Positions 8,072 to 48,188 of a stretch of DNA of 64,000 nt are shown here, piece by piece. The stretch is from Lytechinus variegatus. Lineage: Eukaryota. The notes under the pieces are model-generated. The model ran no database searches, was not told where the DNA came from, and worked only from the letters and a program-made list of their open reading frames with translations. The position numbers and the translations under genes are program-made. The stretch spans positions 35,403,243-35,467,242 of the forward strand of contig NC_054743.1 in assembly GCF_018143015.1 (NCBI RefSeq). The letters are read 5' to 3'. Every line of letters starts with the position of its first letter. The first letter of the stretch is position 1.

Positions 8072-8894
8072 TTTAATTTTCACCCCCGCCCTCGCTCGCT
8101 CGATCCCCTCTCTCCCCCTATTGCTTTCTCTTTTACTATCTATCTTTCCATCTTCCTCTCTTTCTCCGTCTATCACATTACTTTGGAGAGGATACAAGGT
8201 GAGCGTGTATGTCCACTGAGGAAGTTCTCATTTATGCATTATTAAACCACATCAATAAATACCACAGGAAAGCAGAAATTGCTTTGCATGGTGGAATGGA
8301 ATATATAATAGAAGCATTTCAGAATTACCACTCCGCAACTTGAACTTGTGGGTCGTTTTGTTAGCCTCCGTGAATATAATTTTGGATCGAATCACGTTTA
8401 TAGAAATTCCAGTGTCGTAAAGAATCTCACCGCCTGACAAATTAACCTGATTCTTAATGTAATGACGCATAGCATGATGGCAAGAACAAATCAAAAGCTT
8501 GTATTCGCACGCTTACACCTATGAACTCGGAGTAGATCGAATTTCATGGGTTATGCCTTTTTATTGTTATGGTTTGTGTATAAAAAAGATTGGTAAGGAT
8601 ACGAGAGAAATTATAAAAAAATCACAGCAAAATCTAAGCAACAATGCAAATTAAATCAAGCCATTTTTTTTTGTTTCTTCTTCTACTTCTCCGTACTCCA
8701 CTCCTGCGACCCCTCCCCTTTTCTTTACTTTTAGTTAATTCTTCACCATATAATAGTAACCAGCAAGTACGCTCTGTGGTTAACTACATCACAGCGTTTA
8801 TGAACGTCAAGCATTAAACTGCATAATAATTAATGTACACCAATACACAGAGATGACAAGAAAACGACTGATCGGAAAAGAGGTACCGTATGTT

Positions 8895-9112
8895 TTTAGA
8901 GGTTCACTCTAAAAACAAAAAATGTTAACTTAACATTTGAAAGGTTGGAGGAGTGACAACATTTCCTAAATGTTGCATTTACCACTTTAAATGGTTCTAC
9001 CCAACACTTAAAATGTTGGATTCAGCTTTATACAAGGTTGGATGTAACATTTGGAAAAGGTTGTCACTCCTCCAACCTTTAAAAATGTTGATTTAACATT
9101 CGATTTTTTAGA
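8895..9112. mobile_element. Palindromic MITE (CACTCTAAAAA...TTTTTAGAGTG)
   Basis: ~60-bp TIRs: cactctaaaaacaaaaaatgttaacttaacatttgaaaggttggaggagtgacaac is the inverted complement of gttgtcactcctccaacctttaaaaatgttgatttaacattcgattttttagagtg. Confidence 0.7.
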
Positions 9113-9436
9113 GTGTTTCGTAATTCCTCCTTCTCACCGTCGTGCGATCCTTTACGGGTGTTCCGTAAAGCCCTTTCACAATTGGTGTTGCGATTGTGCG
9201 CAACATATATCGTGACCAAATGATCGCACGAGTTATTGTGAAAGCCCCTCAACTGATCACGAAACTTTTCAATCCTTTCAAAAAAAATCTACGATCAATA
9301 CGATTGCCACGACTGATCTGATACGATATGATACGATCTGATTAGACAACTACGATTAATCCACGATTCAGATCAATCGCGGCGTGGAAATCTTGACAAT
9401 GGAAACTAGGTACATGTATAAATAGATCCGTATTTA

Positions 9437-10097
9437 CAGTGTGAGTAAAAAAACCTCAAAAAACTTGACACCTCACAAACTCCAAATTTAAGGAAAAATA
9501 TGCCATGAACACATAATTATTATATATTACGTGAAAGAGTGTCTTACTTCTCCCAACTAATTTGATACCATCTTTATGTGGTATGAGTTAACGCTTGGAT
9601 GACCAGGAGGTATTCTTTGCAGTGATGTAAATTTTGGTTTGCTCCAGAGTAAGGCATCACTGCAATGAGTGAATCCAGATGACAATGATGTTGTAATCCT
9701 TCAAAGGTTGTAGTAAAATCCATTTCAAAATACCCACTTTCAGTAACTTACATTTTGATTGTTTAATAAACATATTTAGCATCGATTCTCAAGCTAATCA
9801 ATGAAAACCGGGATTAGCAAAAAATTATGTTCACTAGCTCATGTAGTATTTTGACCGTCGGGATTCTTTCATTGCAGTCATGCCTTACTTTGGCGCAAGT
9901 CAAAATTTAAATCACTGCAAAGAATAACTGGTGCATCATCCAAGCGTTAAAACATACCACATAAATACGGTATCAAATTATTTGGGAAATAATATTCTTT
10001 CCAGCCATATATAACAATTATGTGTTCATGACATATTTTTCCCTTAAATTTGGGATTTGTTAGGTGTGAATTTTTTTTTACTCACACGGTAGAGTGA
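9437..10097. mobile_element. Foldback element with long (~250-bp) inverted arms
   Basis: Left arm cagtgtgagtaaaaaaacctcaaaaaacttgacacctcacaaactccaaatttaaggaaaaatatgccatgaacacataattatt... is the reverse complement of ...aacaattatgtgttcatgacatatttttcccttaaatttgggatttgttaggtgtgaatttttttttactcacacgg. The arms also pair at tttgcagtgatg / cattgcagtcatg. Confidence 0.7.
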
Positions 10098-10436
10098 GTT
10101 AATTAACGAGGGTTTTGTTCCATTCTTTTATGTGGTATATCATTTTTTTACCGTAAGTAGATATAATCATCTTTGTATTAAGAAGAACAACTACTTTAAA
10201 TCAATCATTATCCCAGATTGTCGTCACTGTATTATTAGTTCTTTGTTGGAAACGAAACAGAGAGATGTCCGCAAATATCTTGTGCATGCTTTATTTAGCT
10301 GGGCACCGTTAATAATAAATTACATTTTTTAACGAGTAATAAACAATGCTGTGGAGTAGATTCCAAACTCATACAGCTCTCGCTCGTTTACAGAGGTCCA
10401 ATCCTTGAATGATAGTAATCATTCACACATGGTAGA

Positions 10437-24610: not shown

Positions 24611-25954
24611 TCCTGATATTTAATTTCAATTTTATTTCTGGTTTTTTTTGGCAACATTTTTCATAAACAAAATCGAGACAAGAAAATGCTTATAAAAAAT
24701 CTGACATCAAGATAATGAGCAAATGATTTTGTATATAAATCATCAAATGTATCATACTTAAATAAACAATTTAAGTGGTATTAACTGATACACAATGAAT
24801 AAGATGGTTAAAAGGGTGGTCACAAAGCAATCTTGAAATTGTGACAACCCTTGAAAAGTGCTGTCACTTAGTGCCTTTTCACACGTGAATCTTGAATCAT
24901 CATTGTAATGATGATTGCTATTCGTCTTCAAAATCATCGGACCTTTCACACGGAAAATTCGTATCGTAATTTGAGTGAAACTTAACTGGAATTCCCCTCC
25001 GGAGAAGAACTTGAATTCGCGATTGTGATTAGTGTTCGTGATTCTCGTTTGGTTTCACACGTGCTAAGAATTCATCATTAACCTTATTTTTCACTGGAAT
25101 CATATCATTCAAATTATGATTATTTTACCGTGTGAAAGGGCGGCTGGTTTATGAACGAAATTTTTATTTAAAAAATTATGAATATATAGACGAAGCGGAC
25201 CCACTGGGCGAGCATTAGACAGAATGATCATTAGACTAAATGGATATTATTAGACCAAGTGAAGTGTAGACTAAACGACAATTAGACCAAAGCGATAGTA
25301 GACTGCATGAAATTAGCCTAATGGTAATAGACTATGGTAGACCAACTTCAGTGTAACCCAAGTGAATATTAATCTTGAACCGCGTCGAATTTTCTCATCT
25401 GGATATTGGAATGGCTTTACTGTTGTTATCAACGACACCGCTGTAGGGAGGAGAGGAACGGATTTAAAGGGGGGGAGGCTTGTCAGATAGAAAATCAAAA
25501 TAAGATGGCAATATGTACGTTTTTGCAGATATGTAGGATAGGAGGCGATGATTGATTGCATTTATTCTTTTCATTCCAAAATTTAACAAAAGTTACAATG
25601 TAAAGCATAACACAAAAATATCATATACAGAAATGAAAAAAAGGAACCCACTGGAAAGCAAAGCTTGTTAGTATCGGTTAGTATCGGTTCCCTACATAAA
25701 TAAATAGTTAAAGTATATCTTTGATCAATGAAATTCAATTCGTAAATTAAAAAGGTTTGTACAATGAAAAAGAATACCAGTGGGGTCAAGCTTTTTATGT
25801 TTACTCACTAAGTTACAATTAACAGAAAAAATGTTATATCGTGCCCCTGCTGTATAAAAAAAACCTGAGTTCTGGAGTGTGTGAACAGACAATCACTTGG
25901 TCAAGAGAGGACGAAAACTAAAAACAAAACAAAGACAATAACAAAAACGGCACA

Positions 25955-33519: not shown

Positions 33520-34060
33520 AAGCATAGAAATAGCAGTGCCACCCCCCCTCCCTCCTTGAATTTTTCCGCGTACATTCGTAATCCCAAAGCTTCGTTATTC
33601 CGAAGGTTCGGATATTCCGAAGGTTCGGATATTCCTGAGGTTCGTATTTCCGAACGTTCGTAATTCCAAAGGTTCGTTAGTCTGAAAATGAAGTAGGGTT
33701 CGTAATGTCGAGGGTTCGTTAGTCCGAAAACGAAATGAGGTTCGTAATTCTGAAGGTTCGTTAGTCCGAAAACGAAAAGAGGTTCGTAATTCTGAAGGTT
33801 CATTAGTCTGAAAACGAAATGATGAACGAACTTTATTTCGTTTTAGGACTAGCGAACCTTCAGAACAACAAACCTTATTTCGCTTTAGAATTAACGAACC
33901 TCCGGAACAACGAACCTTATTTCGCTTTAGCATTAACGAACCTCCGGAACATCGAACCTTCGGAATAACACCACAAATGTTCGGATTGACGAACCCTTTT
34001 ACGTTTTTGGATTAACGAACATCGAGGTATAGGCAATTTACGTGTTTCGGAATTACGAAG
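33520..34060. mobile_element. Foldback element whose arms are tandem ~20-30-bp subrepeats (GGTTCGTAATTCCGAA units)
   Basis: Left arm 33590-33830 is tandem aggttcg(t/g)a(a/t)ttccgaa(a)(cgaaatg) units. Right arm 33830-34030 is the same units reverse-complemented (gaaccttatttcgctttagaattaacgaacctccggaac...). The centre lies near 33830. Confidence 0.7.
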
Positions 34061-34261
34061 TGTAACCGAATTTTTCATACTACAATAGAAAGTATCCAGA
34101 GGATATAATGTATCTTCTCTTACTCATTGACATGGTGCTATAAAACAAAATTAGCGATATCGAACCAAGGATGCTATTAATGTACATATGGTCAAACCGT
34201 AACTCACCCTTCCTCATCTAAAAACAAGTTTCATCTATAAATTCACTCCTTAATCATGAAT

Positions 34262-34470
34262 GCCAGTTGTGATAATCTAAAAATGAGTTCGAATAGAATC
34301 ATATAAAATGACAACCAAAGTGTTTACGGTATGTAGGAATAAAAAAAAATGTGAAATTGCTGAGAAACTGTCAAAACAAGCATGACATTTCCAACCAGAT
34401 GTTTTGTCTTTTGCCAATCAAGAATAATACACTGCCCCACATGTGCTTATCTGTGTTGGCATTCTACAGT
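34262..34470 (+). repeat. Dispersed repeat, R family copy 3 (partial)
   Basis: gccagttgtgataatctaaaaatgagttcg...gtgaaattgctgagaaactg...aataatacactgccccacatgtgcttatctgtgttggc. Confidence 0.55.
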
Positions 34471-34899
34471 TAGATTAAGTTTCAGTTTAGGTGCCATGCA
34501 TCTTCTTAGAAACACCCAAGTCTTTCCCAAAGAATTTTCTTTGCTTTCTAAAAAAGAAAGAAAAAAAAACCCAGACGCAAAGTGATTCATCGACCCACAA
34601 TTCAGTGCCAGATAGTTGCGTAGATTTAAAACATCATCACTTGACTTCCATAAGCATTCAGATTTGCAACATTCTTGAACAAGACTGGCTATACTTTCCT
34701 TTTTTTTTCTCCAAGAACCCATATTCCTCTCTCATACATTTATGATTTTTTTAAAACAAAATAGAACCCTTTCTTCAAGATCATATGATCACAAACATTT
34801 CTGAGTACTTCTTGGCTTGTACAGTTCAATACAAATCTTGGCATGCTGAGGTGTGGCAGAATGGAGACCTGGTCCTGGACCGGGTCCTGGTCCTATAGC

Positions 34900-35013
34900 T
34901 CATTGCTCATGCTTTCTCTTGGTCTTCTTAGGGTTCCTGGACCTACTCTTGGCCTTGCACAGAGGACAGATGGGAGCATTTCTGTGGATCTGCTGGTGGC
35001 ACGACAGACAGTT
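34900..35013 (-). CDS. ZC4H2: ZC4H2-like protein, coding exon 5 (terminal): [37 protein letters not shown]
   Basis: Acceptor cctctctctctttctag| is at 35014-35030 on the minus strand. The reading frame is phase 0 with exon 4. Stop TGA is at 34900-34902. The C-x2-C-x10-C-P-x-C-K motif and the basic tail match the C4H2 zinc-finger C-terminus of vertebrate ZC4H2 (...[41 protein letters not shown]...) as I recall it. Confidence 0.8.
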
Positions 35014-35698
35014 CTAGAAAGAGAGAGAGGAAAAAAATGAATGATGGCCGATACATCCACCTTTAAACCCTGGTATTTACAAGCATATTATTAACATTAC
35101 AGATGCTAACAGAGTATGAAATAAACTCATATTGAAGTTGAGCAAACTGATTCAAATCAGGTAGAAATGAATTAATGGAATTTAATGTTCATTCATTTCA
35201 GGAAAATGTCTACTAATACAGTAGGGCAGATTGGTTACTTAAGACATCATTAATCCATGAATTACACAGCTTTCAAAATGCCAAATAAATCTTCTTTTGG
35301 CTTCTTAAATTGGCAAAAACTCATGAATTTTCAATATATTTTCATATTTTTAAAGAAACAAAATACTTAAAAAAGAACAGATACAAGAGGACCCTTTGCA
35401 TGAAGCATAAAACTTTTGCTTTTGCCTGAGTTTTTTTATGGCAAAAGTTTTTGCAATGGGTCACAGATGTAGAGATTTATGATCAATGAATTAATTTATT
35501 GAAAAGTTGCCTATTTGTATTTTTAAGTAGAGATTTAATTGTTTCATTGCATTGCCAAAAAAATGCTATTTTACAGGCAACTTTATACTCAATGATCCAA
35601 TATACCATGAGTAAATATAAATATTTCATTTTGATCACAGAATGCGTACGTATATGAGCTAACTTGTTGCAAGGGTTTGATACAGAGGACAATCCTAC

Positions 35699-35903
35699 CT
35701 TCATGGGTGGTGGTTGCTGTTTGAAAGGGGGTGGAGGAGGAGGAAGGGGGCCGTTCATCTCCTTGGTGTGGCTGGTTCCTGGCATCTGAAGGGGTGTAGG
35801 GTGTTCCAGAGGTACGGGTAGGGGGCATGAAGTCGGGGTGAGGGGCGACGGGGGATCCCTCTTCTCTGTGTCGTGCCACTCTGCTCTTCTCTTCCTCAGG
35901 AGC
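35699..35903 (-). CDS. ZC4H2: ZC4H2-like protein, coding exon 4: (E)LLRKRRAEWHDTEKRDPPSPLTPTSCPLPVPLEHPTPLQMPGTSHTKEMNGPLPPPPPPFKQQPPPMK
   Basis: Acceptor ttgctgttacag|G and donor ATGAAG|gtagga. The exon begins with 1 nt (phase 1), completing GA|G from exon 3. The Pro-rich segment ending QQPPPMK directly precedes the zinc finger, as in vertebrate ZC4H2. The alternative overlapping frame (ORF 35589-35963) is not supported by splice phase. Confidence 0.75.
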
Positions 35904-36427
35904 CTGTAACAGCAAATGACGCATTTTACGATTGAAATTTCCACTCATTTCATTATTCAACAAACTACAAATTTACCGAGTCAATTTTTTGACAAATTCT
36001 CTGATCATCTTATTCACCTGTAAATATTGTAATTTGGTGTTCTCTTCATTATCTGTTAGTTGCATCTGCTTCAAAAGATTACATGATGCATTTACTTCTT
36101 TATTATACACACACAAATAAAAGGTCAATAATAATATGATAAATGATACCATGAAGCCATTAAAGTTGAGTTAAATATGTAGCATAAATACAAAGATACA
36201 ATGATATAAAAAAGAAGTATATGGTATCAATATGATTAAACTCTGTGAAAATAGAGAGGTCCATTTTTAAAGTGTCATACATTAGATATGCTCTTTTACA
36301 GTTCAATGAGGTTTTGCCTGTTCAGGGGTGGCCTAAGGGTAATTTGAAGGGGGGGGGGGATGGCCAAGTTAGCCTAAAAGTTGCATCATCCTTATGCCTC
36401 AGCCCATAATAGGTGATTGTCAGAGGC

Positions 36428-36900
36428 ATTAAAGGGGAAGTTCACCCTGGCAAAGAGTTTACGGTAAAAATAGCAGAAAAAAATAATGTAATATTGCCAA
36501 AGATTTGAGCAAAATCCATCATAGTATAAGAAATTCACTCATTTGATTTGTGATGTCATACATGTACATGTATGCGAGCAGCTTTCCTGCCTATCTATGA
36601 AATGTCATTTTCTCGGAAAACTGAAAATTGTTTTTACTGTACCTTCAACATAAAAATAGACAAATCATTTCACACCCCTGCCTATAAAAAAAGCAAAAAT
36701 AAATCCTCACGAATCATTACAAAAATTAAAATAATGCATTTTATATTACATAACATATGGGGCAGCTGCTCATTTATGACGTCACAAAAATTTAAATTTC
36801 TAATAACTTTATTAATCTTTAATTAATTTTCCTCAAACCTTCACCACTATTTTTTCTGCTATTTTTACAATATTTTCTTCAGGGTGAACTTCCCCTTTAA
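36428..36900. mobile_element. TTAA-flanked MITE, AGGGGAAGTTCACCCTG family (intron 3 of ZC4H2-like gene)
   Basis: ttaa|aggggaagttcaccctggcaaagag...tttatgacgtcacaaaaat...cagggtgaacttcccct|ttaa. Confidence 0.7.
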
Positions 36901-36929
36901 GTTTATAGATCATCCTTTCGTCTCGTGTA

Positions 36930-37102
36930 TACTACTTACTCTGGATCAAGTCTCCGGTCTTCCTCTGTAAGCTCTGGGATACGATCTAGTCCTATCGACA
37001 TTCTCTGGGCGTTGATTTGTTCTTTGAGGCAAACGTATTCCTGGTACATCTTCCAAGCTGCCTCAAACGCCTTGTTCCTGTCTCCCTCTGTGTTCTTTAT
37101 CA
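36930..37102 (-). CDS. ZC4H2: ZC4H2-like protein, coding exon 3: IESVIKNTEGDRNKAFEAAWKMYQEYVCLKEQINAQRMSIGLDRIPELTEEDRRLDP(E)
   Basis: Acceptor ctcttttcactctccctttaag|ATTGAG and donor CCAGA|gtaagtag. Only one of the three frames is open across the 173 nt. Predicted coiled-coil composition, similar to the middle of vertebrate ZC4H2. Confidence 0.75.
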
Positions 37103-37246
37103 CGCTCTCAATCTTAAAGGGAGAGTGAAAAGAGGGAGGGATGGACGCTGACGGAAGAAAGAAATAAACATTATATAAGTCTATGATGTTGATGATAATG
37201 ACAGCAATGCTATAATAATGATGTTGATGTTGATGACATCGATGAA

Positions 37247-37545
37247 GCGCCGTGGTGTAGCGGTTCTGACTCTAGCCTTGTAATCAGAGGGTTGTGTGTT
37301 CGAATCCCACCATGGCCTAGCGCCCTTTGGCAAGGCGTCAATCCACACTTTGCCACTCTCACCCAGGTGCTAATTGGGTACCGGTAGGACACAACGGTCA
37401 TTGTGGTTGGTTTAGCAAGTTTGCGCCTAACAGGCTGCTTGGAATGCTATGAATCCAGTGACCGGGTAATAATAATTGTAAAGCGCTTTGAACAGTCGTA
37501 GATTGATAAAGTGCTATATAAATGCCAATTATTATTACAATGATA
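37247..37545 (+). mobile_element. Composite tRNA-derived SINE (in intron 2 of ZC4H2-like gene), followed by a microsatellite
   Basis: tRNA-like head gccgtggtgtagcggttctgac...aatcagaggg...gtgttcgaatcccaccatggc. Central domain ...caaggcgtcaatccacactttgccactctcacccaggtgctaattgggtacc. Tail gtaaagcgctttgaacagtcgtagattgataaagtgctatataaatgccaattattatta. Same architecture as 63001-63290 and 49483-49800. Confidence 0.65.
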
Positions 37546-37980
37546 ATGAGGATGATAACGTTGATCACAATGGGTATTATGATAGTGATGAGATGATGAT
37601 GATCATGATCACTGCCATTATGATGATGTCAGCAATTTTCATGATAATGATGTTAATTATGATCATTATTCTCAATCCACTTTTCAGACTGATGATCACA
37701 AAGATAATGATAAAGGTGACGATACTGATTAAGGTGACAGATGGTGATGATGGTGGTGATGATGATGGTGATGATGAAGATGATGATAGTGATGATGGTG
37801 ATGATGGTGGTAGTTGTGATGATGATAATGATGATCATGATGATGGGGATGATGATGATGATGATGGATGGGGATAATGGTGATGATGATGATGGGGATG
37901 ATGATGATAATGATGATGACGATAACAATGATCGCTCAGTAATTATTTCCAAAACAATCATAATACACTTCACCAACTAA
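37546..37980. repeat. Microsatellite (ATG/GATGATGGT)n
   Basis: gatgatgatgatcatgatcactgcc...gatggtgatgatggtggtgatgatgatggtgatgatgaagatgatgat. The ORF-track peptides 37488-37877, 37653-37976 and 37741-37980 are artefacts. Confidence 0.9.
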
Positions 37981-38250
37981 CTTCGAAAGATACTGTTTAC
38001 TCTTTAGAAGAAGTGCATTGTGATCAATTTTTGTCTTGTTTTTCTCTTTAACTCTGCATTTGTATTATAGTTCGGCCATGCCTGACAAGCACCTGTTACT
38101 GGTCCCATTTACCATGTCTATTACATGCTTCATGTGTGTATCAAATTTTCCTGCAATTTTTTTTCATTGTATCCCTGATTGTTTCATTATAACCTGTAAA
38201 CATGTGAATACTGACAAATGAAATGAAATCAACGGGGAATTGTTACTCAC

Positions 38251-38422
38251 TGTGTTAATGTCTGAATGTATCTGTCTGAGTTCCTCTACGTGTGCCAGCC
38301 TCTCCTGGTTGAGCAGGTCCATCTCATGCCGATATTCCTTTAATCTATCCTCCTCCTTCTCGGCCTCCTGCATATCCACCAGGAGCCGACCCTTCATCTT
38401 CTCCAGGTGGACCGTCTGCGAC
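38251..38422 (-). CDS. ZC4H2: ZC4H2-like protein, coding exon 2: (R)SQTVHLEKMKGRLLVDMQEAEKEEDRLKEYRHEMDLLNQERLAHVEELRQIHSDINT
   Basis: Acceptor ccctcggtttccag|GTCGCAG and donor AACACA|gtgagtaac. The run EYRHEMDLLNQERLAHVEELRQIHSDIN parallels vertebrate ZC4H2 ([31 protein letters not shown]) as I recall it. Confidence 0.8.
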
Positions 38423-38523
38423 CTGGAAACCGAGGGATTATGGAAAAGAAAAATCATTATTCTTCCTCAATAGAAAATACCTCCATTTATCATACTATTC
38501 AGACTATGCAGTTTCTTAACCCC

Positions 38524-38935
38524 AGACTATCCTTAAAGGGGAAAGCTCAGTCTGTTGTAAAATTAGCAGACAAAATATTGGTGAAGGTTTGAAATATAAT
38601 CCATTAAATATTAAGAAAGTTATTAGAAATTCAAGTTTTTGATTTGTGACAACGTTAACGAGCAGCTGCTTCATATATATACACTATAGAATACATATTT
38701 CATTTTTTAATGTGATGACTTATTCTTAATCTTCTTTTTAGCAGCAAGTGTGAAATGATTTGGGTATCGATATACTGAATGTACAATAAAAACATTTTAA
38801 ATTGATTTTTTTACCATACGATACGTACGAAAGAAGCTTGCATATGACGTCACAAATCATATAATTAAAATTCTAACAACTTTTTTTTTATTTGTCAGCT
38901 TTTTGTCAGGTTGAACTTCCCTTTTAAATTCACAT
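38524..38935. mobile_element. TTAA-flanked MITE, AGGGGAA(A)G...CACC family (intron 1)
   Basis: ttaa|aggggaaagctcagtctg...tatgacgtcacaaatc...gtcaggttgaacttccctt|ttaa. Confidence 0.6.
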
Positions 38936-39221
38936 TTCCTCTTATTTTGTTGCAATTTGCTAGGCTAGGGTTAAGAAACAAACAAGATTCACTGTCTATC
39001 TAAATGTGTTTTCCGTGAAGGGGGGGGGGGGGGGCGGAAGCACATCATCAACATTACAGAAATGTTTAAGAACATTGAAACTTTAAAAAAACGGCATTAA
39101 TGGAAAGAAGAGAAAGGTCCATTTTGACTCAAAGATGAAAGCAAGATCAGAAGAGCTGCCACATTCGCCATGCATTTCAGCCCATTTCTCTAAAGCCACC
39201 TTATGGTACATATTGCTTATA

Positions 39222-39865
39222 CTTAACGGGCAAGTCAACCCCAAGTTATCAAAATGTGGATTTGAATAAGAAAATGTAAAGAAAAACAATCAAACAAGCA
39301 TAACACTGGAAATTTTATCAGGTTATCAAATTTCAAAAATTTGCTACTTTTCAGAGAGCAGTTATAGGCACAATGGTGAAATGCAAATGAAAGAGCCACA
39401 AACTATTTAATTTGGTTTCCACTTAATAATAATAAATATTTCAATATTCTCCAATTTCACAATGAGGAACCAACTTCATAGAACCACAATAAAGTTGCAA
39501 CAATTGCAATCCAACATATCAAAGGAGGAATCAAAATCCGATATGTCACCTTATTTACTGGGTGCCATCCAGATATTGTGTACAGATTCAAACCTTGTTT
39601 CACATCATGATGAAAAAAAGAAGATTTTTTCATATCTCACATGACAAAATAGTGGGTGAGTGATATGATATTATCACTTCCCTCATTTGCATACCGATCA
39701 AGATGTGATTAACTGTTTTGTGAAATCGAGCAAAATTCTACAATGTCATAACTCTACATTCCACATCCAATATTGATGAAATTTTCAGGTTTATGTTGTT
39801 TGATTTTCCTCTTGTCATTCATTTATCAAACCAATTTTTTTGTTGGGGAGGACTTGTCGTTTGAA
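39222..39865. mobile_element. Foldback element, TGATGACGTCATC family (diverged copy)
   Basis: ttaa|cgggcaagtcaaccccaagttatcaaaatgtggatttgaataagaaaatgtaaag...ggtgaaatgcaaatgaaagag on the left. The right arm is ...catttgcataccgatcaagatgtgattaactgttttgtgaaatcgagcaaaattctacaatgtcataactc...gttggggaggacttgtcg. Confidence 0.65.
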
Positions 39866-40423
39866 GTTTATTTAAGTTCTGATAAATCAATCCCCTACTC
39901 TCCAAAGTGCAGGTCAATATTCCAATTAATCACTTGATTATATGAGTTTGTATGCCCGATAACAGTTATGATATGAATGAAAGGAAAAAAATGTGTTTCA
40001 TTGAACAAATTGTTAGAGTTTACATTAAGATACTTTTAGAATGGGTGCCAGATCAAATAAAAATATCTTCATATTTTTCTATTTTGATATAAAACCTAGA
40101 CTCAAAATTATTGAGTGGGTTGAAAAAATCTGGATACAACATTCGTCTAAAGCTTTTGAATTTTCCCTTTTTTTAAGAAAATATAAACATTGTGGAAAGA
40201 GAGAGAGATAAAAAAGAAAAATATAAATTATAAAATATAATATAATATTTATGAATTTTCAAAAAGAACTATTAATGGTTGAAACAGATTGAAAAGACAA
40301 TACACTTTTGCATTTTATTGCAATGCTATGTGTTTGATAATTCATGTAAACGACCTTTCAACAAAGAGCTTTAAAGCAAACTACATAGTTGAGAATAAGT
40401 AGTAGTTCTATCAGGTTTGAATT

Positions 40424-40474
40424 TTTAACTTTGTACATTTTCAACTGGAATAATTACCAGTTGAAAATGTACAA
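40424..40474. repeat. Perfect hairpin (22-bp arms)
   Basis: aactttgtacattttcaactgg aataatta ccagttgaaaatgtacaaagtt. Confidence 0.7.
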
Positions 40475-42097
40475 AGTTAAAATCTGTCATTGCTTTGATA
40501 GATAGTCTGGGCCCTGGGGTAATTGGTTTTAAAATGCTTAACAATCAAAGAAATAAATATTGAATATTTAGCAGAATCAATAAATGAAAATATCGTGTGA
40601 AATACATGAGCAGTATCTTTCGTCGGTATGCACATGTATGTCATGTAAGCATTTTTATACATACTTTTGCATTTTTGTACAATGATCATTGATTTGATTT
40701 TAATACAATAGATGGAAATCAAACCAAAGTACAAATTTGATTAAGATTTTGATTGTGGAAATTCAATAAATTCATTCATTCATTCATTCTTAGAATTCAT
40801 TCATTCATTCAAATATTGAGGTAAAACAGATATGTAAAAGGAAAGATCCACTCCTTTTAATAGCAATATTCTTTTACAATTTTGAAAGGACTATTGAAAG
40901 GACTATGATTAATTACCATCAAGTGCATTTTATAAGTATGTTACCTGTTAGAATAAGAAAAAAATTATTTTGTATTGTAGCCTACAATGCCCCAATGGAT
41001 CTAACAAAACAATAATAGCAGGCTTGTATCTCTTGTATCAGAAATGTGAAATTTATTGTTTTTACAATAAGCAAATGCCAGGGGAAAGGGGTCTCAAATT
41101 ACAAAACAGAAGATGTTGAGTAGTGTAAGACAATATTTTTCTCTCTTATTATTTCAATTTTGTTCAGTAATCTTTTCTAAATGACCATTTGAAAATAAAT
41201 CAAAATGTAGTACATGTATTACTCCATTTTAAAGAATTATGGATGAACACAAAAACTTTGAATCTTTACACTGGCTGTTGTAATTCTATGGACTACAATT
41301 ATGGAAAAGTCCATAATTCAATTTTTTTAAAAATGAATATTAAAAAAAGAATTAAATTTTACAGTTGAACAATTTCTTAATCTCATTTAAAGTTTGCAAA
41401 AATGTAAATAAATGTAAAAAAAAAATACACAAATACACATCCAGTCAAGAAACTGGCTCATTAAAGCCTGAAGTTTTAGCAACTCCCCAGCAAAATGTCT
41501 GTCACTATTCCATTGATTAGTCAATGATGAAAAATTATTTCATTGTACACTGTAATAAATGTATGCGCTTTGGGCCTCATGGGAAATGCGCCGTATATTA
41601 ATATGAACATGGAGGTATACCCTACAAGTATGATGTGGAGGACACTTGTTTAAAAATGGATGTAATTAGATAATTATGAAGTTTACATTCATTGGGGGTG
41701 GTTTTGTGCCCTATAAAAATAAAATATCTGCACATTTTGTTCTCTCTCTCTTTTGATGTAAAAATCAATTCCTGTAGCATGTGGAAATTTCAGGATATTT
41801 CCTGCTATGTCATCATCAAAATTACTTTAAAAAAACAAGTAATCAAAATGCCATTTTTAAAGAAAAAAAAACTAAATCAACCAAGAGAGTGAGCTAGAAA
41901 AAAAGGAAGAAACATTCAACAAAGAAATTAACAGATTAACAAAATTAAGGGTAATACACTATTGTATGATTGCATGCAATTCATGTTATTGACCCACTAT
42001 AGTCTACATCACTGAAGTTTTTAGAGAGACTTTAAAAAAAGACTTTTAAAATAGAATATGTATAATACTAAATAGGTTCATTATTGCGGATTGAAAT

Positions 42098-42315
42098 AAT
42101 CGCTAGAGGGTATTCATTTGTCTCGCAATCTACTATGGTCAACAAGGAAATTCGTGATCACTCTTGCAAAGCTCGTGAACTTGTAAGCTAGTGAACACTT
42201 TTTGCGAGAGTGATCACGAATTTCCTAGAAAGCCAGTGAACACTTTTTGCGAGAGTGATCACGAATTTCCTTGTTGACCATAGTAGATTGCGAGACAAAT
42301 GAATACCCTCTAGCG
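42098..42315. mobile_element. MITE with ~65-bp TIRs and an internal tandem duplication
   Basis: aatcgctagagggtattcatttgtctcgcaatctactatggtcaacaaggaaattcgtgatcactct...(cactttttgcgagagtgatcacgaatttcc x2)...ttgttgaccatagtagattgcgagacaaatgaataccctctagcgatt. Confidence 0.75.
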
Positions 42316-43529
42316 ATTAAGAATATGTATGTACGCAAAGTGTGAATCAAAACATTAAAAATAAAACATAATACATATTATTACCTACATGTATACAAGG
42401 CATTTTAGCAGATAAATAAATGTCATATTTCCCTTGCTACTTTTCAATTCAAGACCAACAGGGTTAACAAGTGCCATGTTGCTCTTTCCAGGAAACATCA
42501 CTTGCCCTTTAATAAAAGAACCATATTGCCCTCGTCTAAGACTCGGGCCATTATCATTCTGTTGCGGGCAACAGTAAAAAAAAAAACACTGCACGTAAAG
42601 GCCAGTCACATATGCTTAAATTTCAAAATACATGTGATAAAAACAAGTTTCACAAATGGACTTTCATGAAAAATCATCCATGAATTATCATGTTTCAGAT
42701 CTATGCAAGTGATTACAAAATAAATGATAACAAAATATATACAATTATAAAAAGATGGGCTGCAAGTATGGAAGTTGAAATAAAAGCACTTTGTTTTGTG
42801 AATTAAAAGTCATTTATTTTCATTTCCTTTCTGTCAGATTAATTTTACCAAAACATTTTAAAGCTAACAGAATATTTTATCAAACAATGGTCCTTCTCCT
42901 TGGTTTTCTTTTCACATTTGGTAGTGAACATTTTCTTTTCTTACAATAACCCGAATACAAAAGGCATTGTTGCGATCCGCCAGACCAAACAAATTACATG
43001 TATAATAGATAGTGGGCATTATTTGTATATGTAAAAGTGTCTTTGATAATAACAACCAATTACTCGAGTGTTGACCGAATAATGCTTGAAAAGGGACAGT
43101 ATGCATCCAAGTCTCTGCTGTTTTTGCACGAAGAACAAACATCAGTCACTCGATTAAATTCAAATAAGGAATCATTCATATGACAGTATTTTATTTCAGT
43201 ATTCTATACAGCATTTTAAACCCCTCAAAAAAAGTTTTGCAACTCATTTTTGGGGGATGATATCTTTTTGGTTAATGAAGTATAAAAGATGAAACTGGTA
43301 TCATTGGAAAGCTGAATTATTCTTCTTTACAATGACATGCCATTTGCTGTGATTATGTAATCATGGAATATGCAATCACCCTGAACATCGAGAAAAGTCA
43401 GAAGTGAAATGTTGCAAAATGCATTGATTTCCAAAAAGAGTCTCCATTTCTATAGAATTTCCACCATGCAGGTGACAGTGAATGCACTCGGTCCATCCTC
43501 GAAACAATTGGAAATTCGCTATTGCAAAC

Positions 43530-43925
43530 GACGCATTTTGCAACATTTCATGTCTAACATTGCTGTGTATTATCATGTCTGTGTATTTCATGATAACACT
43601 AGCATTACAAATGACACATGATTGTAAAGAAGAATAATCATGCTTTCTAAAGATATCACTTTTACACATGATGATGGCACATTAAGAAATTTATTAGCAC
43701 TCAAACTTGCAGTTTGAGTTGCAGAACTCAAACATGACATGGCAACGAATTTTGCAACATTTCATTTTTTACATTGCTGCATATTTATCATGTCTGTGTA
43801 TTTCATGATAACACTAGCATTACGAATGACACATGATCGTAAAGAGAAATAATCATACTTTCCAATGATACCACTTTTACATATGATGATGGCACACTAA
43901 GAAATTTATTAGCACTCAAACTTGT
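43530..43925. repeat. Tandem duplication, ~220-bp unit x 2
   Basis: ttgcaacatttcat.t.taacattgctg.at.ttatcatgtctgtgtatttcatgataacactagcattac.aatgacacatgat.gtaaaga.aataatcat.ctttc.aa.gata.cacttttaca.atgatgatggcaca.taagaaatttattagcactcaaacttg occurs twice, with ~90% identity. Confidence 0.75.
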
Positions 43926-44678
43926 GTTGCGGAACTTATTTTGAGGGGTTTATATTGAAACCATCTCGTACTTTCAATCCATAGTTGACCGAACATGAAT
44001 CAGAAAATATGAAAACCATGGGATATTCTTTCTTTGAATTATACTCTCTGTTTCCATTCGATGGGGCTGTAACATTGTTTCACTTTATTTTTTCAGAAAC
44101 ACACTTTAAATATGAGAACATCCTTACTTCATTTCATGAATTAAAAGTAATGCTCATGTATGGTAATGCTCATGTATGATGGATGTAAGCTGTTCGATTC
44201 ATGACATTGGATTCTAAAGGTATTAGACTGCTCTTCCAACTTTGGTATAGCATTATAGTTTGAATAGCTCTGCATGTATATCCCACAATATTGAAGGAAA
44301 TTAATCTTTTATATTAAAATGTTGAAATTCAAAATCTGAGAGGAATATAGCATCTTCAAGGAAAATGTTGTTGACAAAACATATACATGTAGCTTTCATA
44401 CACCGTCCCTTTTATACGAAAAATTGTATCATTTTTTCACTTTCATTTTGAGATCATTCTAGGCTGATAATGTGCAATATCAAAATTAACAACAGTTATT
44501 GAAACCAACTTTGAAAAATAAATAATTGGGGAATGATTACACAATAAGCAGTTGTTAGCATTCCGTTTCATTCAAAATGTTTTTCTTTCTTTCGAAGATT
44601 TGGGGTAAATAAAAATCTCATCTTGACTCCAAATTTATTGACGATAATATACTCTCAAAGCTGTTGAAAGTCACTTAC

Positions 44679-44710
44679 CTTAGAACATTTTCCAGCAAAT
44701 GGATACTCAT
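44679..44710 (-). CDS. ZC4H2: ZC4H2-like protein, coding exon 1: MSIHLLENVL(R), start codon at 44708-44710
   Basis: The minus strand reads aacagg ATG AGT ATC CAT TTG CTG GAA AAT GTT CTA AG|gtaagtgactttcaacag. An in-frame TGA lies 12 codons upstream. There is A at -3. Ending on 2 nt (AG) joins with G of exon 2 to give Arg. It loosely parallels the vertebrate N-terminus ...KLESIKEIR|NKT. Confidence 0.6.
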
Positions 44711-45500
44711 CCTGTTTCCTCCTATTAATAACAGTTTCAAATATCAGATAACCCCTCCTCAAAATTGTCCTAAAACTATGCAACAGTTGTCCTAAAACTA
44801 TGCAACAGTTGTCCAAAAACTTGCAGCAATAACAGAGGGTATATACATGTAAAGGACCATATAAGAATGGCTAATAGTCACAGAAGAAGTTGTCCTGTAT
44901 AAAAGTAGTGCAACATTGGTCCAAAACTTGCCACAAAATGGGTAGATAATGGGAAAAGACGATTGCTAATCGTAGGGGAGGGCCTCAAATGAGTTGTCCA
45001 AAACATGCATCAAAGGGATAGGATAGAGGAGCAAGATAATGACAAGTCAGAGAAGAGGAGGTCCCTTAAAAAGCATGGCAAGAGTGGTCCGTAATTGCAG
45101 CAAGAGGGATAGCTCAGACAATGACTCTTCATGGGAAAAAAGAGGTGGATGCAATTCATAAGATCCAAGTTTGCAGACACCATCCACGACGAGCGAGGGA
45201 GCCGCCTTCTTGATCGCGCCGGAGCAGTGGATAAAATGAGCAATCTTGGTCAATGCAATCACTAATCGACCCTACTTGAATAGAGCTCAGCTGCTGCATG
45301 CCCCGATTGTTGGCTAAAGTGCTGGAGTCTTTTGTGTTCGCGTGTCTTGTCTGCTAGACCATGAACATGGGTAGCATAGTGTCTCAGACGCAGTAAAGGG
45401 GGAGGGGCCTATCGGAAACAAATTTGGCTGGCTGGCTGGCAAGCCAATCCTTCACCTTCCCCCTTCTCTCTCTATTTGTCTTCCCCCTCACTCTCTTGCT
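44711..45500 (-). promoter_or_regulatory. Putative promoter / 5' region of the ZC4H2-like gene (locally CpG- and GC-enriched, CT-rich tract, CCAAT)
   Basis: 45170-45420 holds cgacgagcgagggagccgccttcttgatcgcgccggagcag, gttcgcgtgtc and gacgcagtaaaggggg, unusually CpG-dense for this window. caagccaatcc is at 45438. A polypyrimidine block is at 45440-45530. No TSS can be assigned from sequence alone. Confidence 0.3.
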
Positions 45501-45635
45501 CTCCTCTTCATATTTTCTTCTCTTTTTTTTTTAAATCGATTGTCTAATTTATTTTCTTTGTTTCATTGATATTTATCATTTTTCTTTTACTCCTGGTAAG
45601 TGTTTTTAGTCACAATCCTGTTGAAAGTCACTTAC

Positions 45636-45667
45636 CTGAGAGCATTTTCCAGCGAGTGGATGCTCAC
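45636..45667 (-). pseudogene. Duplicated copy of ZC4H2-like exon 1 plus donor, lacking the ATG (GTG) - pseudo-exon or alternative non-coding 5' exon
   Basis: The minus strand reads GTG AGC ATC CAC TCG CTG GAA AAT GCT CTC AG|gtaagtgactttcaacagg. It is ~80% identical over ~55 bp to 44657-44712 including the 18 intronic nt after the donor. The frame is open back to a TGA with no ATG. Confidence 0.5.
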
Positions 45668-46861
45668 CCCGCCCTCCTTCTCTTTACAGTACTTAACAAT
45701 TTCAGTTAAGTGTTTATAGCCAAGAAAAGATGATCAAAGTACATTTTATTGTATATTTAAGACTCACTTAAATTCATCAAGTAAAAAAATAAAATCTGTT
45801 TCATTTGAAAGAAGATATGCATTATGCAATACATATTATCTACATGTATGTATTTGTCTCAAAATCATACAGTTTTTCATTTCAAAATATTGAAAAAAAA
45901 TATTGATTGTGACATTTGAAATGAGTAATATTTGACAAATAAGGCCCTAATGGCAGACTTGCACGCAATATACAGGAGAACAGAAAACATAAAGGACCTA
46001 ATGATAATAAAAATATTAATACAATTTGCCCTATGAAATCAGACAATCACACTATCTATAACTTACTAATACAGATAAAATGACACTAGCAACAAATTTC
46101 AAGCACCCATGATACTAATACAATCTAGAATTGTCCTTAAGAAAATGAAAGAAGAGATAAAAGAGTGAGGGAAAGGGGAACGATGACAGTTTGATCTATC
46201 CGAGGATAATCTGATACTGGCTGGGAGCCGACGGGTTAATACGGGGCAACAGGAGGCTCGCTTCCCAAATCACTGAGCAGGGACGGATAAAATGCCCCCA
46301 ATCAGGCTGTTAACACCTCCATCAATTATTCAGGCCGGAGGCAAGCTACCAACCACCGAGCATTATCTGGCAACAAATCCCTATACTCCGTCATTCTTTG
46401 GTGTCTTCCAAGCTACCTTATAGCTCTCCCCGGGTGCGTTTATCATCTCTTTTCTGCGGTAAAAAGAATCACGTTTTCAAAACGTGTTTTGAGGTTCTTT
46501 TTGCAGATATGATATTAAATGCAAAGGTGTTTTGATTGTTGCCGATTGGGCTTGTAAAGACTTTTCGGATTGCACAAATTTGTGTGAATTTTAATATTTA
46601 TGTCCGAGCCTGAAATATTAATCTACAATGCTGCATAAGGGACAAACGCAAAGTTGTATTGAAATGCAGTTGAACTTCCATCACTTCTGCCCATTTCAGG
46701 TTCCAGAGTATAAACTGACCCACAATTCAAACTGATTTGAGAAGACAAGAAAGAGAATATTTAGAGGTTGACAAATAAAATTCAGCAAGAAATTTTATAA
46801 GACACAGATCATATGTAAGATAGAGAAAAGGATATATTGATACATAAAGATGCTCTACTTT

Positions 46862-47478
46862 TTAAAGTACAAGTCCATCTTGCCAACAAAAAAAGTTGAT
46901 TTGAATGAAAAGGGAAAAACCAAGCAAGCATAGCACAGAAAGTTTCATCATGAAATGGGATGTAAAATAAGAAAGTTATGACATTTCAAAATTTTGTTGA
47001 ATTTCACTAAACAGTTATATTCACAGAGGCCTACTGGTCGGTATGCAAATATCAAAGGGGACTGATGAAATCGCCAACTCTCTATTTCTGTTGCATTTTC
47101 TAACATGAAATATGAAATATTTTAATGTTTTCATTGTCATGTGAAATAAAGGCTTATTCCTCCCCTGAACATGTAGAATCACCACTGTTTGTTTTATGGT
47201 TCAGTCAGGTAGGTCCTTATTGTGAAATCTGTAGAAATTGAAATATTGTATACTAGTAAATCAAACAGTAAAAAAAAAAGAAATGGTGAGGGACATCATC
47301 GACTCTCTCACTGAGTTGTGCAAATAGTAACTGTTTTGTCAAAAAGGGGGATTTAAAATGTCATATAACTGTCTTATTTTACATCCAACTTTGATGAAAT
47401 TTTCAGTGTTTTGCTTGCTTGATTTTTCTCTAATGATTCAAATCAGCATTCTTCTTGGGTGGACTTGACCTTTAAAGA
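46862..47478. mobile_element. Foldback element, TGATGACGTCATC family, TTAA-flanked
   Basis: ttaa|agtacaagtccatcttgccaac...ggtcggtatgcaaatatcaaaggggactgatgaaatcgcc on the left. The right arm is ...gagggacatcatcgactctctcactgag...gggtggacttgacct|ttaa. Confidence 0.75.
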
Positions 47479-47800
47479 CATAATGGGTAAAATCATAAAG
47501 GGTCTTTTTATAAAATTCCAGAACTTTTATGTGTGCTTTACATGGATTAAAAATACCCGGGAGGTATTAAAAAGCAAATCAAATTTGTGCAGACAATTTC
47601 AAAATAATGTCTGTAACTGAAAAAACAAGATAATGTTTCAGTTGCATGGTGTTTAATAGTCACATTTTAGTACATGGAATAAAACGGGGAAGGGGATTCC
47701 AGGGAGTTGGGAGTGATTCCATGTTCATTTTTTACTTTTATGAACACTACATACTGGTTTCGAAGTGTGTTTTAAAAGCTTCATTTAAAGATAAAATTCC

Positions 47801-48188
47801 AGTTTTGGTAACGATCTCAAAATGTCTTTTTATAGAATCTAAAATAATGATGACCCAAGTGACTGTTTGTATGAATAAAAAATATGTGCCAAAGGATTCT
47901 GGAAGAAATTGTGTAATTGCTGAGAAATAAGCAAAATAAGCGTGGATTCAGTCACTTCCGTCGGGTCTTTATTCCAGCAATAATAATACACTGTCCCAAT
48001 TGTGCCTATCTGTGTTGGTGATCTTCAGTGTGAACATTTTCAGCGTAGATTTCAAGATTTCACAAAGTTCAGTTTATGTAACTGTACCAGATCTAGATCC
48101 TCGATGATAAACTGACAATTAAGCCTGGTTTTAAAGACTTTCTCATGAAATAAGTGTTTACTGCAACTACTGGTATTTCTCTTTAACA
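47801..48188 (+). repeat. Dispersed repeat, R family copy 2
   Basis: See 31711-32100. The two copies are ~88% identical across ~390 bp. Confidence 0.7.

Follow-up and report, generated by a model that had tools for sequence, protein, structure and literature searches.

Templated insertions with flanking microhomology are a known product of MMBIR and are at times tied to complex rearrangements (PMC8421209). The short duplication described here, at the 5' end of the ZC4H2 gene of the sea urchin Lytechinus variegatus, resembles the products of FoSTeS, MMBIR, and SD-MMEJ in several respects: the insert copies nearby sequence, microhomology of 3 nt and of 5 to 8 nt is found at the junctions, the target has been recopied as a flanking repeat, poly(A) and terminal inverted repeats are lacking, and a small inversion lies nearby, a link of position only. 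It departs from the events reported in PMC8421209, which are inverted copies of templates within 100 bp, in that the Lytechinus template lies ~0.95 kb away and is present in direct orientation, and from somatic or disease-associated templated insertions in being a fixed germline event common to two species. Alternative first exons and promoters offer another parallel, as ZC4H2 does use alternative first coding exons (MGSDDTHEILNKMTNLKDIR in isoform X1 and MSIHLLENVLR in isoform X2), but the upstream copy has no duplicated promoter, no ATG in L. variegatus, and a peptide that is not conserved. Like mutually exclusive tandem exons, the duplicated unit includes an exon of equal length and phase with an intact donor; unlike them, it involves a first exon without an acceptor, its copies have a spacing of 957 bp, filled by unrelated sequence and a putative promoter block, and one of the two Lytechinus copies is unconstrained. 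Finally, the copy shares a 16-nt flanking direct repeat with retro-copies, but it includes intron sequence and lacks both poly(A) and an endonuclease-type target motif. The downstream copy is the real, conserved exon 1b. On balance, we regard it as fairly probable that the upstream copy arose by a short templated insertion in the Lytechinus lineage, shortly before the split of L. variegatus and L. pictus, and that it is now a decaying pseudo-exon.

The gene at this locus is the L. variegatus ZC4H2 orthologue. Within the window (the whole 64-kb stretch of DNA analyzed), a spliced 231-amino-acid model is 100% identical to RefSeq XP_041462878.1 (isoform X2) and contains PF10146 (zf-C4H2); the C-terminal C4H2 zinc finger, the N-terminal coiled-coil region, and orthology to annotated ZC4H2 were all found. 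Exons 2, 3, and 5 were located by tblastn with a human ZC4H2 query, to which the finger is 89% identical. In the spliced model, which lies on the minus strand, exon 2 (38251 to 38422) provides the acceptor common to all alternative first exons and is followed by exon 3 (36940 to 37112), exon 4 (35699 to 35903), and exon 5 (34900 to 35013), which contains both the stop codon and the sequence for the C4H2 zinc finger. An earlier note on this DNA had proposed the exon 2 acceptor at 38422, and the identity of the model spliced from it to isoform X2 bears this out.

The MSIHLLENVLR exon is an alternative first exon (1b), that of RefSeq isoform X2. Its coding part (ATG to AG, 32 nt, 44679 to 44710, minus strand) encodes MSIHLLENVL and ends two bases into the R codon. 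Its 5' splice site is AAG/GTAAGT (44673 to 44678, minus strand); splicing from there to the acceptor at 38422 is in phase 2 and reproduces the RefSeq protein. RefSeq isoform X1 starts with a different, canonical first exon (MGSDDTHEILNKMTNLKDIR), which is absent from the 64-kb window as searched by tblastn and by a scan with 4- to 7-mer peptides. The alternative first exons all join exon 2, and equivalents of both occur in S. purpuratus and Diadema; L. pictus and S. purpuratus have exactly the same exon 1b peptide, and Diadema matches it at 9 of 11 residues. The derivation of exon 1b from exon 1a and its donor was considered separately and rejected, the similarity in S. purpuratus and Diadema being no greater than that of shuffled controls.

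A repeat search revealed a two-copy direct repeat on the minus strand, at 44650 to 44712 and 45607 to 45669, with 84% identity over 63 nt and a spacing of 957 bp. With 3 or fewer mismatches, a 35-nt pattern that runs across the end of the exon and the donor has only these two matches in 64 kb, with 0.00 expected from shuffles, so that the duplicate reported in the earlier note at about 950 bp upstream of exon 1 is real. The downstream copy runs from the ATG at 44710 to the AG at 44679 (MSIHLLENVLR) and the upstream copy from a GTG at 45667 to the AG at 45636 (VSIHSLENALR). Their coding parts have 27 of 33 nt in common, and the donor and following intronic bases, GTAAGTGACTTTCAACAG, are the same in both, in agreement with the earlier description of a match running through coding bases, donor, and adjoining intron. 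Other details of that description also hold: the upstream copy has GTG in place of ATG (45667 to 45665), the downstream ATG is preceded by an in-frame stop 11 codons upstream, and no ATG occurs in the 23 open codons that separate the upstream copy from an in-frame TGA. The downstream ATG, previously placed at 44712, is in fact at 44710, and the match had been drawn too short.

Counted from the ATG, the core of the homology spans about −13 to +64 (~85% identical), and a weaker stretch reaches −41; both ends are abrupt, at about −13 (or −41) on one side and between +61 and +64 on the other, so that the duplicated tract measures only about 75 to 105 nt, its source lies 957 bp away, and no homology extends beyond it. 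Whether the 5' boundary is −13 or −41 is uncertain, as the similarity of −41 to −14 is significant in a permutation test for the L. variegatus upstream copy (P of about 0.005) and not for that of L. pictus. The template segment (about −41, or −13, to +64) corresponds to 44647 to 44751 on the minus strand, as delimited by local alignments of the copies of both species and by a seven-sequence alignment; the same alignments, the repeat search, and the L. pictus orthologue place the inserted copy at 45604 to 45708 on the minus strand. Within the latter, the GTG pseudo-start (45667 to 45665) opens the ex-coding part (45667 to 45636), which is followed by an intact donor, CAG/GTAAGT (45635 to 45630). 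A decayed tandem duplication of the whole 957 bp was ruled out: wider homology around the two copies was looked for as its trace and none was found, there being no repeated sequence between or around them.

It is extremely unlikely that the pair reflects chance similarity or a dispersed repeat or transposable-element family. Dispersed repeats do occur in the region (for example, at 46859 to 47484 of the window), but zero chance matches are expected, one of the copies is a conserved coding exon, and no further copy of the unit is present in the 64-kb window, while those seen across about 260 kb of related loci are all orthologous. No dispersed family, which the earlier note had named as a possible refutation, was thus encountered in that sequence.

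Between the two copies lies a single-copy, GC-rich conserved block (45134 to 45440, minus strand), recognized by alignment to S. purpuratus, with which it is collinear and 69.6% identical over 332 nt; Diadema keeps a 24-nt core at 92% identity. The block opens with GCCAGCCAGCCAGCCAAATTTGTT and a GGCCCCTCCCC box and, judging from these features, is probably the promoter or 5' untranslated region of exon 1b. The earlier note had described 45170 to 45420 as CpG enriched. This segment is indeed GC rich (GC content of 0.52, with 13 CpGs), but its CpG observed/expected ratio is 0.78 compared with 0.70 for the whole window, so that the enrichment is due mostly to GC content. Two origins had been offered for the pair. 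The first, recent duplication of a first exon that has a promoter of its own or uses an alternative one, finds no support, given a tract of ~75 to 105 nt that excludes 45134 to 45440 and a peptide that is not conserved between L. variegatus and L. pictus; the second, a decaying duplicate, is supported by the presence of an orthologous copy in L. pictus, noncoding-like evolution, and loss of the ATG only in L. variegatus.

The upstream copy is bracketed by a 16-nt direct repeat, TGGCTATAAACACTTA on its 5' side (45707 to 45722, minus strand) and TGACTAAAAACACTTA on its 3' side (45597 to 45612, minus strand), identified by 16-mer search and from the junction sequences. With up to 2 mismatches, the 16-mer TGACTATAAACACTTA has two matches in 64 kb (0.10 expected), 110 nt apart and bracketing the copy, and two matches in the 29.5-kb L. 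pictus locus (L003, 8980 to 8995 and 9089 to 9104), 109 nt apart and likewise bracketing the copy. Microhomology is present at both junctions. The last 3 nt of the 5' repeat (TTA) match the source at −44 to −42, which counts as junction microhomology if the boundary is −41, and the stretch homologous to the source intron extends over the first 5 to 8 nt of the 3' repeat (TGACT[ATA]). At the 3' junction, the downstream copy reads CATTGTGACTG in L. pictus and GAGAGTATA in L. variegatus, and the upstream copies read GTGACTA(T/A)A; from these sequences, the ancestral microhomology was probably TGACTATA. Neither poly(A) nor terminal inverted repeats were found at the copy. If the insert starts at −13, ~27 nt of filler between the 5' repeat and −13 has no source in the window or the related loci, which counts against an insertion.

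A flanking direct repeat of 16 nt is of the usual size in target-primed reverse transcription. The copy might accordingly be read as a short 5' fragment of nascent, unspliced exon 1b pre-mRNA, reverse-transcribed and inserted by a non-LTR retrotransposon enzyme with a 16-bp target-site duplication, and the fragment does begin close to where the exon starts and is oriented like the gene. We consider such an RNA-mediated origin very unlikely, because the 3' end has no poly(A) or A-rich stretch, the repeat starts at CT/TGAC rather than at a TT/AAAA-like nick site, the fragment ends within the intron, and DNA template switching explains the microhomology at both junctions more simply. The combination of target-site duplication, poly(A), and endonuclease-type target that characterizes LINE-mediated retro-copies was not found here; the 16-nt repeat is present.

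We infer that the copy arose by template switching during DNA synthesis, in a sequence of steps that might have been as follows. A strand in replication or repair synthesis would have left its template ~0.95 kb upstream of exon 1b; it would then have copied ~75 to 105 nt comprising the start codon, the 32 coding bases, the 5' splice site, and ~30 intronic bases, before rejoining the original template through the 5- to 8-nt microhomology TGACT[ATA]. Recopying of 16 nt on return would have produced the direct repeat that flanks the insert. No promoter came along with the insert, and its former coding part has since drifted at a neutral-like rate.

L. pictus carries an upstream copy at the orthologous site (L003, 9034 to 9066), with an ATG and the peptide MNIHELENVPR, 967 bp upstream of its own exon 1b, in a collinear alignment with 90% identity once gapped columns are set aside; the copy therefore predates the split of the two species. 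Between them, the upstream copies differ at 7 of 33 nt and 5 of 11 residues (VSIHSLENALR versus MNIHELENVPR), with the start lost in L. variegatus; the downstream copies, the true exon 1b, differ at a single nucleotide of 33, a synonymous change. As 31% of the 33-nt windows in the region differ by at least as much as the two upstream copies, these 7 ex-coding differences fall inside the local distribution, and accelerated change of the copy was rejected as a description. No purifying selection on the peptide of the copy is seen, its divergence being typical of local noncoding windows. Changes since the split are also distributed differently: the upstream copies have 8 in their exon part against 3 in their intron part, and the downstream copies have 1 and 8, respectively (Fisher P = 0.0098). 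Within +1 to +63, only position 30, at which the upstream copies share a C with S. purpuratus, divides the upstream from the downstream copies, and the remaining differences are single-lineage changes; −6 to −4 also divides them. An initiation codon in frame with exon 2 is missing from the upstream copy of L. variegatus and present in that of L. pictus, and the GTG at 45667 might reflect a polymorphic site or a wrong base in the assembly of this single haplotype. Sequence comparison thus shows the upstream copy to be free of coding constraint; it appears to evolve like neighboring noncoding DNA, with the ATG lost in L. variegatus only. Because it has no promoter, drifts in a neutral-like manner, and has lost its start in L. 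variegatus, we interpret it as a decaying pseudo-exon rather than a second coding first exon, and we infer that it has no function.

A conserved noncoding block (46008 to 46540, with no strand assigned) lies ~300 bp upstream of the inserted copy, as seen in alignments of L. variegatus with L. pictus, S. purpuratus, and Diadema. It is 96 to 98% identical between the two Lytechinus species, in both of which it is inverted relative to S. purpuratus and two Diadema species (reverse matches at 23456 to 23118 of S. purpuratus L001, 76% over 345 nt, and in Diadema, 72% over 105 nt). Its association with the insertion is purely one of position, as the breakpoints of the inversion cannot be placed. A coding role for the block was rejected, given stops in all frames and mismatches without 3-nt periodicity. 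The block has no Rfam match; an Rfam scan of 43500 to 48000 gave only a sub-threshold SNORD107 match, and a tRNA scan of 34000 to 48000 found none.

Not every feature of the copy fits decay. Its donor and the next ~30 nt are well kept, with 3 changes compared with 8 in the source intron, which counts against decay; the CAG/GTAAGT donor, a perfect consensus, is in the right phase in both species, and no indel has entered the 33 nt, so that the frame to exon 2 is preserved. With this intact donor, a read-through transcript could in principle splice from the upstream copy. The copy might even be a working leader exon, noncoding in L. variegatus and alternative-coding in L. pictus, spliced from the donor at 45635 to exon 2 in transcripts that would begin upstream of 45667 and would perhaps be driven by the inverted block at 46008 to 46540; in L. 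variegatus, the first in-frame AUG would then be the Met of EKMKGRL in exon 2. The strong conservation of that GC-rich block ~300 bp upstream is in keeping with a leader exon, as are the two L. pictus RefSeq protein accessions with one and the same sequence, which are consistent with transcripts differing in their untranslated regions. We nevertheless judge this unlikely. The promoter was not duplicated with the copy; the ~60 nt upstream of the copy together with the ex-coding part form the least conserved 100-nt row (71 of 100) of the 2-kb alignment between the two species; 5 of 11 residues of the peptide differ, with a Pro in L. pictus and the start lost in L. variegatus; and the peptide of the copy does not stand at the start of any of the six proteins in the 90% cluster around this ZC4H2 protein.

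Polarity is indicated by the downstream copy, which is collinear with exon 1b and the promoter block of S. purpuratus, and by the direct repeat, which flanks the upstream copy and marks it as the derived one. Comparison of syntenic regions in relatives, suggested in the earlier note as a check, gives two copies in L. pictus and one in the 46 kb of the S. purpuratus locus, from which a second copy appears to be absent. Neither S. purpuratus nor Diadema has a second copy at this position; searching them for one, or for an empty target site, gave low-complexity matches only, the flanks being too diverged to align. Diadema antillarum and D. setosum each have two mini-exon copies 325 bp apart (9676 and 10001 of L005), encoding MNMKSLENILR and MSFHLLDNVLR. 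Each copy starts with an ATG, is followed by a GTAAGG donor, and is 100% conserved from one Diadema species to the other; nothing convincing was found in the way of repeats flanking them.

These Diadema copies are a counterpoint to a young insertion in Lytechinus and leave some probability to an older origin followed by gene conversion. An ancient pair of mini-exons would have been homogenized by gene conversion shortly before the split of L. variegatus and L. pictus, with S. purpuratus having lost one member. Besides the conserved pair itself, the Asn at residue 2 shared by the L. pictus upstream copy and the Diadema upstream copy, and the TCG at codon 5 shared by the latter and the L. variegatus upstream copy, point in this direction, and a gene conversion tract of 75 to 100 nt is plausible. 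The positions do not correspond, however, since the GCCAGCC block has both copies on its downstream side in Diadema and the Lytechinus copy on its upstream side. An ancient pair also requires loss in S. purpuratus, transposition, and conversion, leaves the bracketing 16-nt repeat and the junction microhomology unexplained, and has no residual homology in the flanks beyond the tract to its credit. We therefore rate it as quite improbable and retain the templated insertion as our explanation.

In S. purpuratus, the exon 2 acceptor junction is repeated in a tandem array (124 bp, ×4.8), and this array, together with the possibly independent mini-exon duplications in Lytechinus and Diadema, leads us to a speculative proposal that we hold to be rather doubtful: extra promoter-proximal copies of splice junctions at the 5' end of ZC4H2 might be retained by selection, the upstream copy in Lytechinus serving as a noncoding leader exon or a U1-binding element. 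If so, the copy would channel upstream-initiated transcripts into exon 2, giving a truncated N terminus in L. variegatus and a variant one in L. pictus, or alternatively would boost transcription from the adjoining promoter.

In annotation, the upstream copy should not be called a coding exon, and what appears as "exon 1" in this window is the alternative exon 1b. A role as an oral-ectoderm lineage factor in the sea urchin has been put forward for Zc4h2 (bioRxiv 10.1101/2025.08.12.669999), and the inverted conserved element near the copy may be of interest for studies of Zc4h2 regulation. If our explanation is right, as we believe somewhat more readily than not, the Lytechinus locus offers a clean natural case of a templated insertion fixed in the germline, with junctions still legible in the 16-nt repeat and the microhomology. 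The insertion would have happened to place a start codon and a consensus 5' splice site upstream of a promoter. Raw material for new first exons and upstream open reading frames would arise in this way, here in the course of decay, with the ATG lost in L. variegatus and kept in L. pictus.

A tblastn search with human ZC4H2 located minus-strand exons of the gene, among them a zinc-finger exon 89% identical to the human protein. From the splice sites we built a model of five coding exons, all on the minus strand (exon 1b, 44710-44679; exon 2, 38422-38251; exon 3, 37112-36940; exon 4, 35903-35699; exon 5, 35013-34900), with a spliced product of 231 aa that matches XP_041462878.1, isoform X2 of L. 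variegatus, at 100% identity from end to end. Isoform X1 in the same protein cluster has 240 aa and begins MGSDDTHEILNKMTNLKDIR, the canonical N-terminus, which is similar to that of the starfish, brittle-star and crinoid proteins. The first exon of X1 is absent from the 64-kb window; it lies 15.4 kb 5' of exon 1b in S. purpuratus and 21.5 kb 5' in Diadema. In L. variegatus it must be located over 19 kb 5' of exon 1b, past window position 64000, so that the window edge cuts the gene. What the earlier note called exon 1 is indeed a first coding exon, but the alternative one. L. pictus and S. purpuratus encode the same peptide, MSIHLLENVLR, and Diadema encodes MSFHLLDNVLR; this retention indicates that exon 1b is old and constrained. 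We are thus dealing with an ordinary ZC4H2 orthologue whose alternative first exons were already known.

A repeat search recovered minus-strand 44650-44712 and 45607-45669 as a two-copy direct repeat of 63 nt with 84% identity and a spacing of 957 bp. On the minus strand, the downstream copy, exon 1b itself, reads ATG AGT ATC CAT TTG CTG GAA AAT GTT CTA AG/GTAAGT (ATG at 44710, donor G at 44678) and the upstream copy GTG AGC ATC CAC TCG CTG GAA AAT GCT CTC AG/GTAAGT (GTG at 45667, donor G at 45635); the 18 intronic bases GTAAGTGACTTTCAACAG do not differ between them (18/18). A 35-nt pattern over the exon end and donor has two matches in the 64-kb window, both of them these copies, against 0.00 expected from dinucleotide-preserving shuffles. 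The duplication of exon and donor, the GTG in place of ATG and the extension of the match into the intron, all claimed by the earlier note, are therefore real; chance similarity or a dispersed repeat, contradicted by these statistics and by the copy count in the sequence available, is exceedingly improbable. The reading frames are likewise as described there: an in-frame stop lies 11 codons 5' of the downstream ATG, and the frame of the upstream copy extends 23 codons in the 5' direction to a TGA, with no ATG in that stretch. The block between the copies, described as CpG enriched, is GC rich (GC 0.52, 13 CpGs), but its CpG observed/expected ratio of 0.78 barely exceeds the window average of 0.70.

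Orthologous loci were compared from four species: S. purpuratus (L001), L. pictus (L003), D. antillarum (L004 and L005) and D. setosum (L006). In L. pictus, exon 1b is at L003 10001 and a second copy, with ATG and encoding MNIHELENVPR, is found 967 bp upstream at 9034-9066. A global alignment of L. variegatus 46600-44610 with L. pictus 8150-10105 is collinear, with 90% identity over ungapped columns, and the upstream copies of the two species are thus orthologous. No second mini-exon copy was found in 46 kb of the S. purpuratus locus, so that the synteny comparison proposed earlier gives two copies at the orthologous site in L. pictus and one in S. purpuratus. A conserved GC-rich block at L. 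variegatus 45440-45134, beginning GCCAGCCAGCCAGCCAAATTTGTT, matches S. purpuratus 24956-25275, and Diadema retains a recognisable core of it. Collinearity with both S. purpuratus exon 1b and this block identifies the downstream copy as the original; the single-copy block is likely the promoter or 5'UTR of exon 1b.

Local alignments of the four Lytechinus copies place the duplicated core at about -13 to +61..+64 relative to the ATG. Weaker similarity reaching -41 is significant for the L. variegatus upstream copy (P about 0.005) and not for that of L. pictus, and no other duplicated sequence was found around the two copies. Within +1..+63, position 30 alone separates both upstream copies (C, as in S. 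purpuratus) from both downstream copies (A), as does the trinucleotide at -6..-4; the remaining differences are each private to one lineage. As nearly all differences are private, the copies were nearly identical when the two Lytechinus species split, and the duplication, or its last homogenisation, dates to shortly before that split and after divergence from Strongylocentrotus.

Homogenisation by gene conversion of an old paralogous mini-exon pair is suggested by Diadema, where D. antillarum and D. setosum carry two mini-exons 325 bp apart, MNMKSLENILR and MSFHLLDNVLR, each perfectly conserved between the species and having an ATG and a GTAAGG donor (L005 9676-9708 and 10001-10033; L004 31203 and 31528; L006 ~35193 and ~35518). 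Diadema RefSeq proteins use the downstream mini-exon only; by nucleotide similarity, Lytechinus exon 1b is closer to the upstream one. However, the Diadema pair is entirely downstream of the GCCAGCC block, whereas the Lytechinus upstream copy lies upstream of it, and conversion leaves unexplained a 16-nt repeat bracketing that copy; we consider this origin improbable. The D. antillarum ZC4H2 5' region occurs on two contigs, JBFRCO010000273.1 (L004) and JBFRCO010000104.1 (L005), with 97.5% identity over 900 nt, which probably represent uncollapsed haplotypes rather than separate genes.

The bracketing repeats, on the minus strand at 45722-45707 (TGGCTATAAACACTTA) and 45612-45597 (TGACTAAAAACACTTA), are spaced 110 nt apart and are the only two matches to the 16-mer in 64 kb at up to 2 mismatches (0.10 expected). 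L. pictus has the same pair around its copy (8980-8995 and 9089-9104, 109 nt apart) and no other in 29.5 kb; neither the S. purpuratus nor the Diadema loci contain the 16-mer. In the source, homology is likewise preceded by the TTA that ends the 5' repeat (GGGGTTA/TCTGATATT). Homology with the source intron ends on the 5-8 bases that open the 3' repeat (TGACT, probably TGACTATA in the ancestor); here the downstream copy reads CATTGTGACTG in L. pictus and GAGAGTATA in L. variegatus. The simplest mechanism would be a two-step template switch, in which synthesis would run through ...TGACTATAAACACTTA, jump via TTA to the exon 1b region ~0.95 kb off, copy about 100 nt there, return via TGACT(ATA) to the first template and copy the 16 nt again. 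This predicts a repeat spacing of 16 + about 105 - 8, roughly 110, as observed. RNA-mediated insertion would also agree with the 16-nt repeat, yet the insert contains intron sequence and has no poly(A) or TT/AAAA-type target site, making that route highly unlikely. Terminal inverted repeats are also lacking. With its nearby template, sharp boundaries, junction microhomology and re-copied flanking target, the upstream copy fits a templated insertion. Templated insertions flanked by microhomology have been described for MMBIR-type repair (PMC8421209); unlike those events, the Lytechinus copy is in direct orientation and from a more distant template.

Between the two Lytechinus species the upstream copy differs at 7 of 33 formerly coding sites, among them the start codon (GTG in L. 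variegatus, ATG in L. pictus), and at 5 of 11 residues, one of them a proline in L. pictus. Since 7 or more differences occur in 31% of the 33-nt windows of the 2-kb alignment, the upstream copy behaves like the surrounding noncoding DNA; true exon 1b shows a single, synonymous difference across its 33 sites. Lineage-specific changes (exon/intron) number 8/3 in the upstream and 1/8 in the downstream copies (Fisher p = 0.0098), and the least conserved 100-column row of the alignment (71/100) holds the upstream copy and its 5' flank. We rejected the upstream copy as a coding alternative first exon, since it has no start codon in L. variegatus and its peptide shows no constraint; on this comparison it is not a coding exon. 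A working leader exon would accord with the preserved frame and the donor CAG/GTAAGT, intact in both species, but no promoter was duplicated, the 5' flank and peptide are poorly conserved, and none of the six proteins in the 90% cluster starts with the upstream peptide; we regard this role as unlikely. Of the alternatives raised earlier, a recently duplicated first exon with its own or an alternative promoter is not supported, and a decaying duplicate, its start lost in L. variegatus and kept in L. pictus, is.

A noncoding block at 46008-46540, some 300 bp 5' of the inserted copy, is 96-98% identical between the Lytechinus species; its identity is 76% with S. purpuratus (345 nt) and 72% with Diadema (105 nt). 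It contains no ORF and matched no Rfam family. Relative to ZC4H2 it is inverted in both Lytechinus species versus S. purpuratus and the two Diadema species, implying one or more additional small rearrangements; the breakpoints do not align, and any tie to the insertion is one of position. The block is a candidate enhancer; Zc4h2 has been reported to have several lineage-specific regulatory elements (bioRxiv 10.1101/2025.08.12.669999). Upstream of this block, both Lytechinus species carry a ~620-bp dispersed repeat (46859-47484 in L. variegatus), probably a transposable element, with an extra copy in L. pictus that starts ~60 nt past the donor of exon 1b (L003 10094-10714) and related copies in an S. 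purpuratus intron (L001 33638-34187). A GA-rich tract between the inserted copy and the promoter-like block (45446-45545) has expanded in L. pictus, and its S. purpuratus counterpart (L001 about 24720-24910) is much longer; Diadema has a GA-rich tract on the opposite side of the GCCAGCC block. Just 5' of exon 1b, a perfect 22-nt tandem duplication (TTGTCCTAAAACTATGCAACAG x2; 44765-44808) with a third, diverged unit falls in an alignment gap in L. pictus. In S. purpuratus, a tandem array of 124 bp x 4.8 with 96% matches (L001 29674-30262) is made up of the last part of intron 1, the acceptor and ~75 nt from the start of exon 2. RefSeq isoform X2 (MIVFISVNLLVSRSQK...) appears to derive from this array, which may be either a genuine duplication of the junction or an artefact of assembly.

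The upstream copy, probably a templated insertion, is a fresh example of an already known type of event. Its value is mainly for annotation, and it offers a tidy natural case of a start codon and splice donor seeded 5' of a promoter, with decay differing between two sister species.
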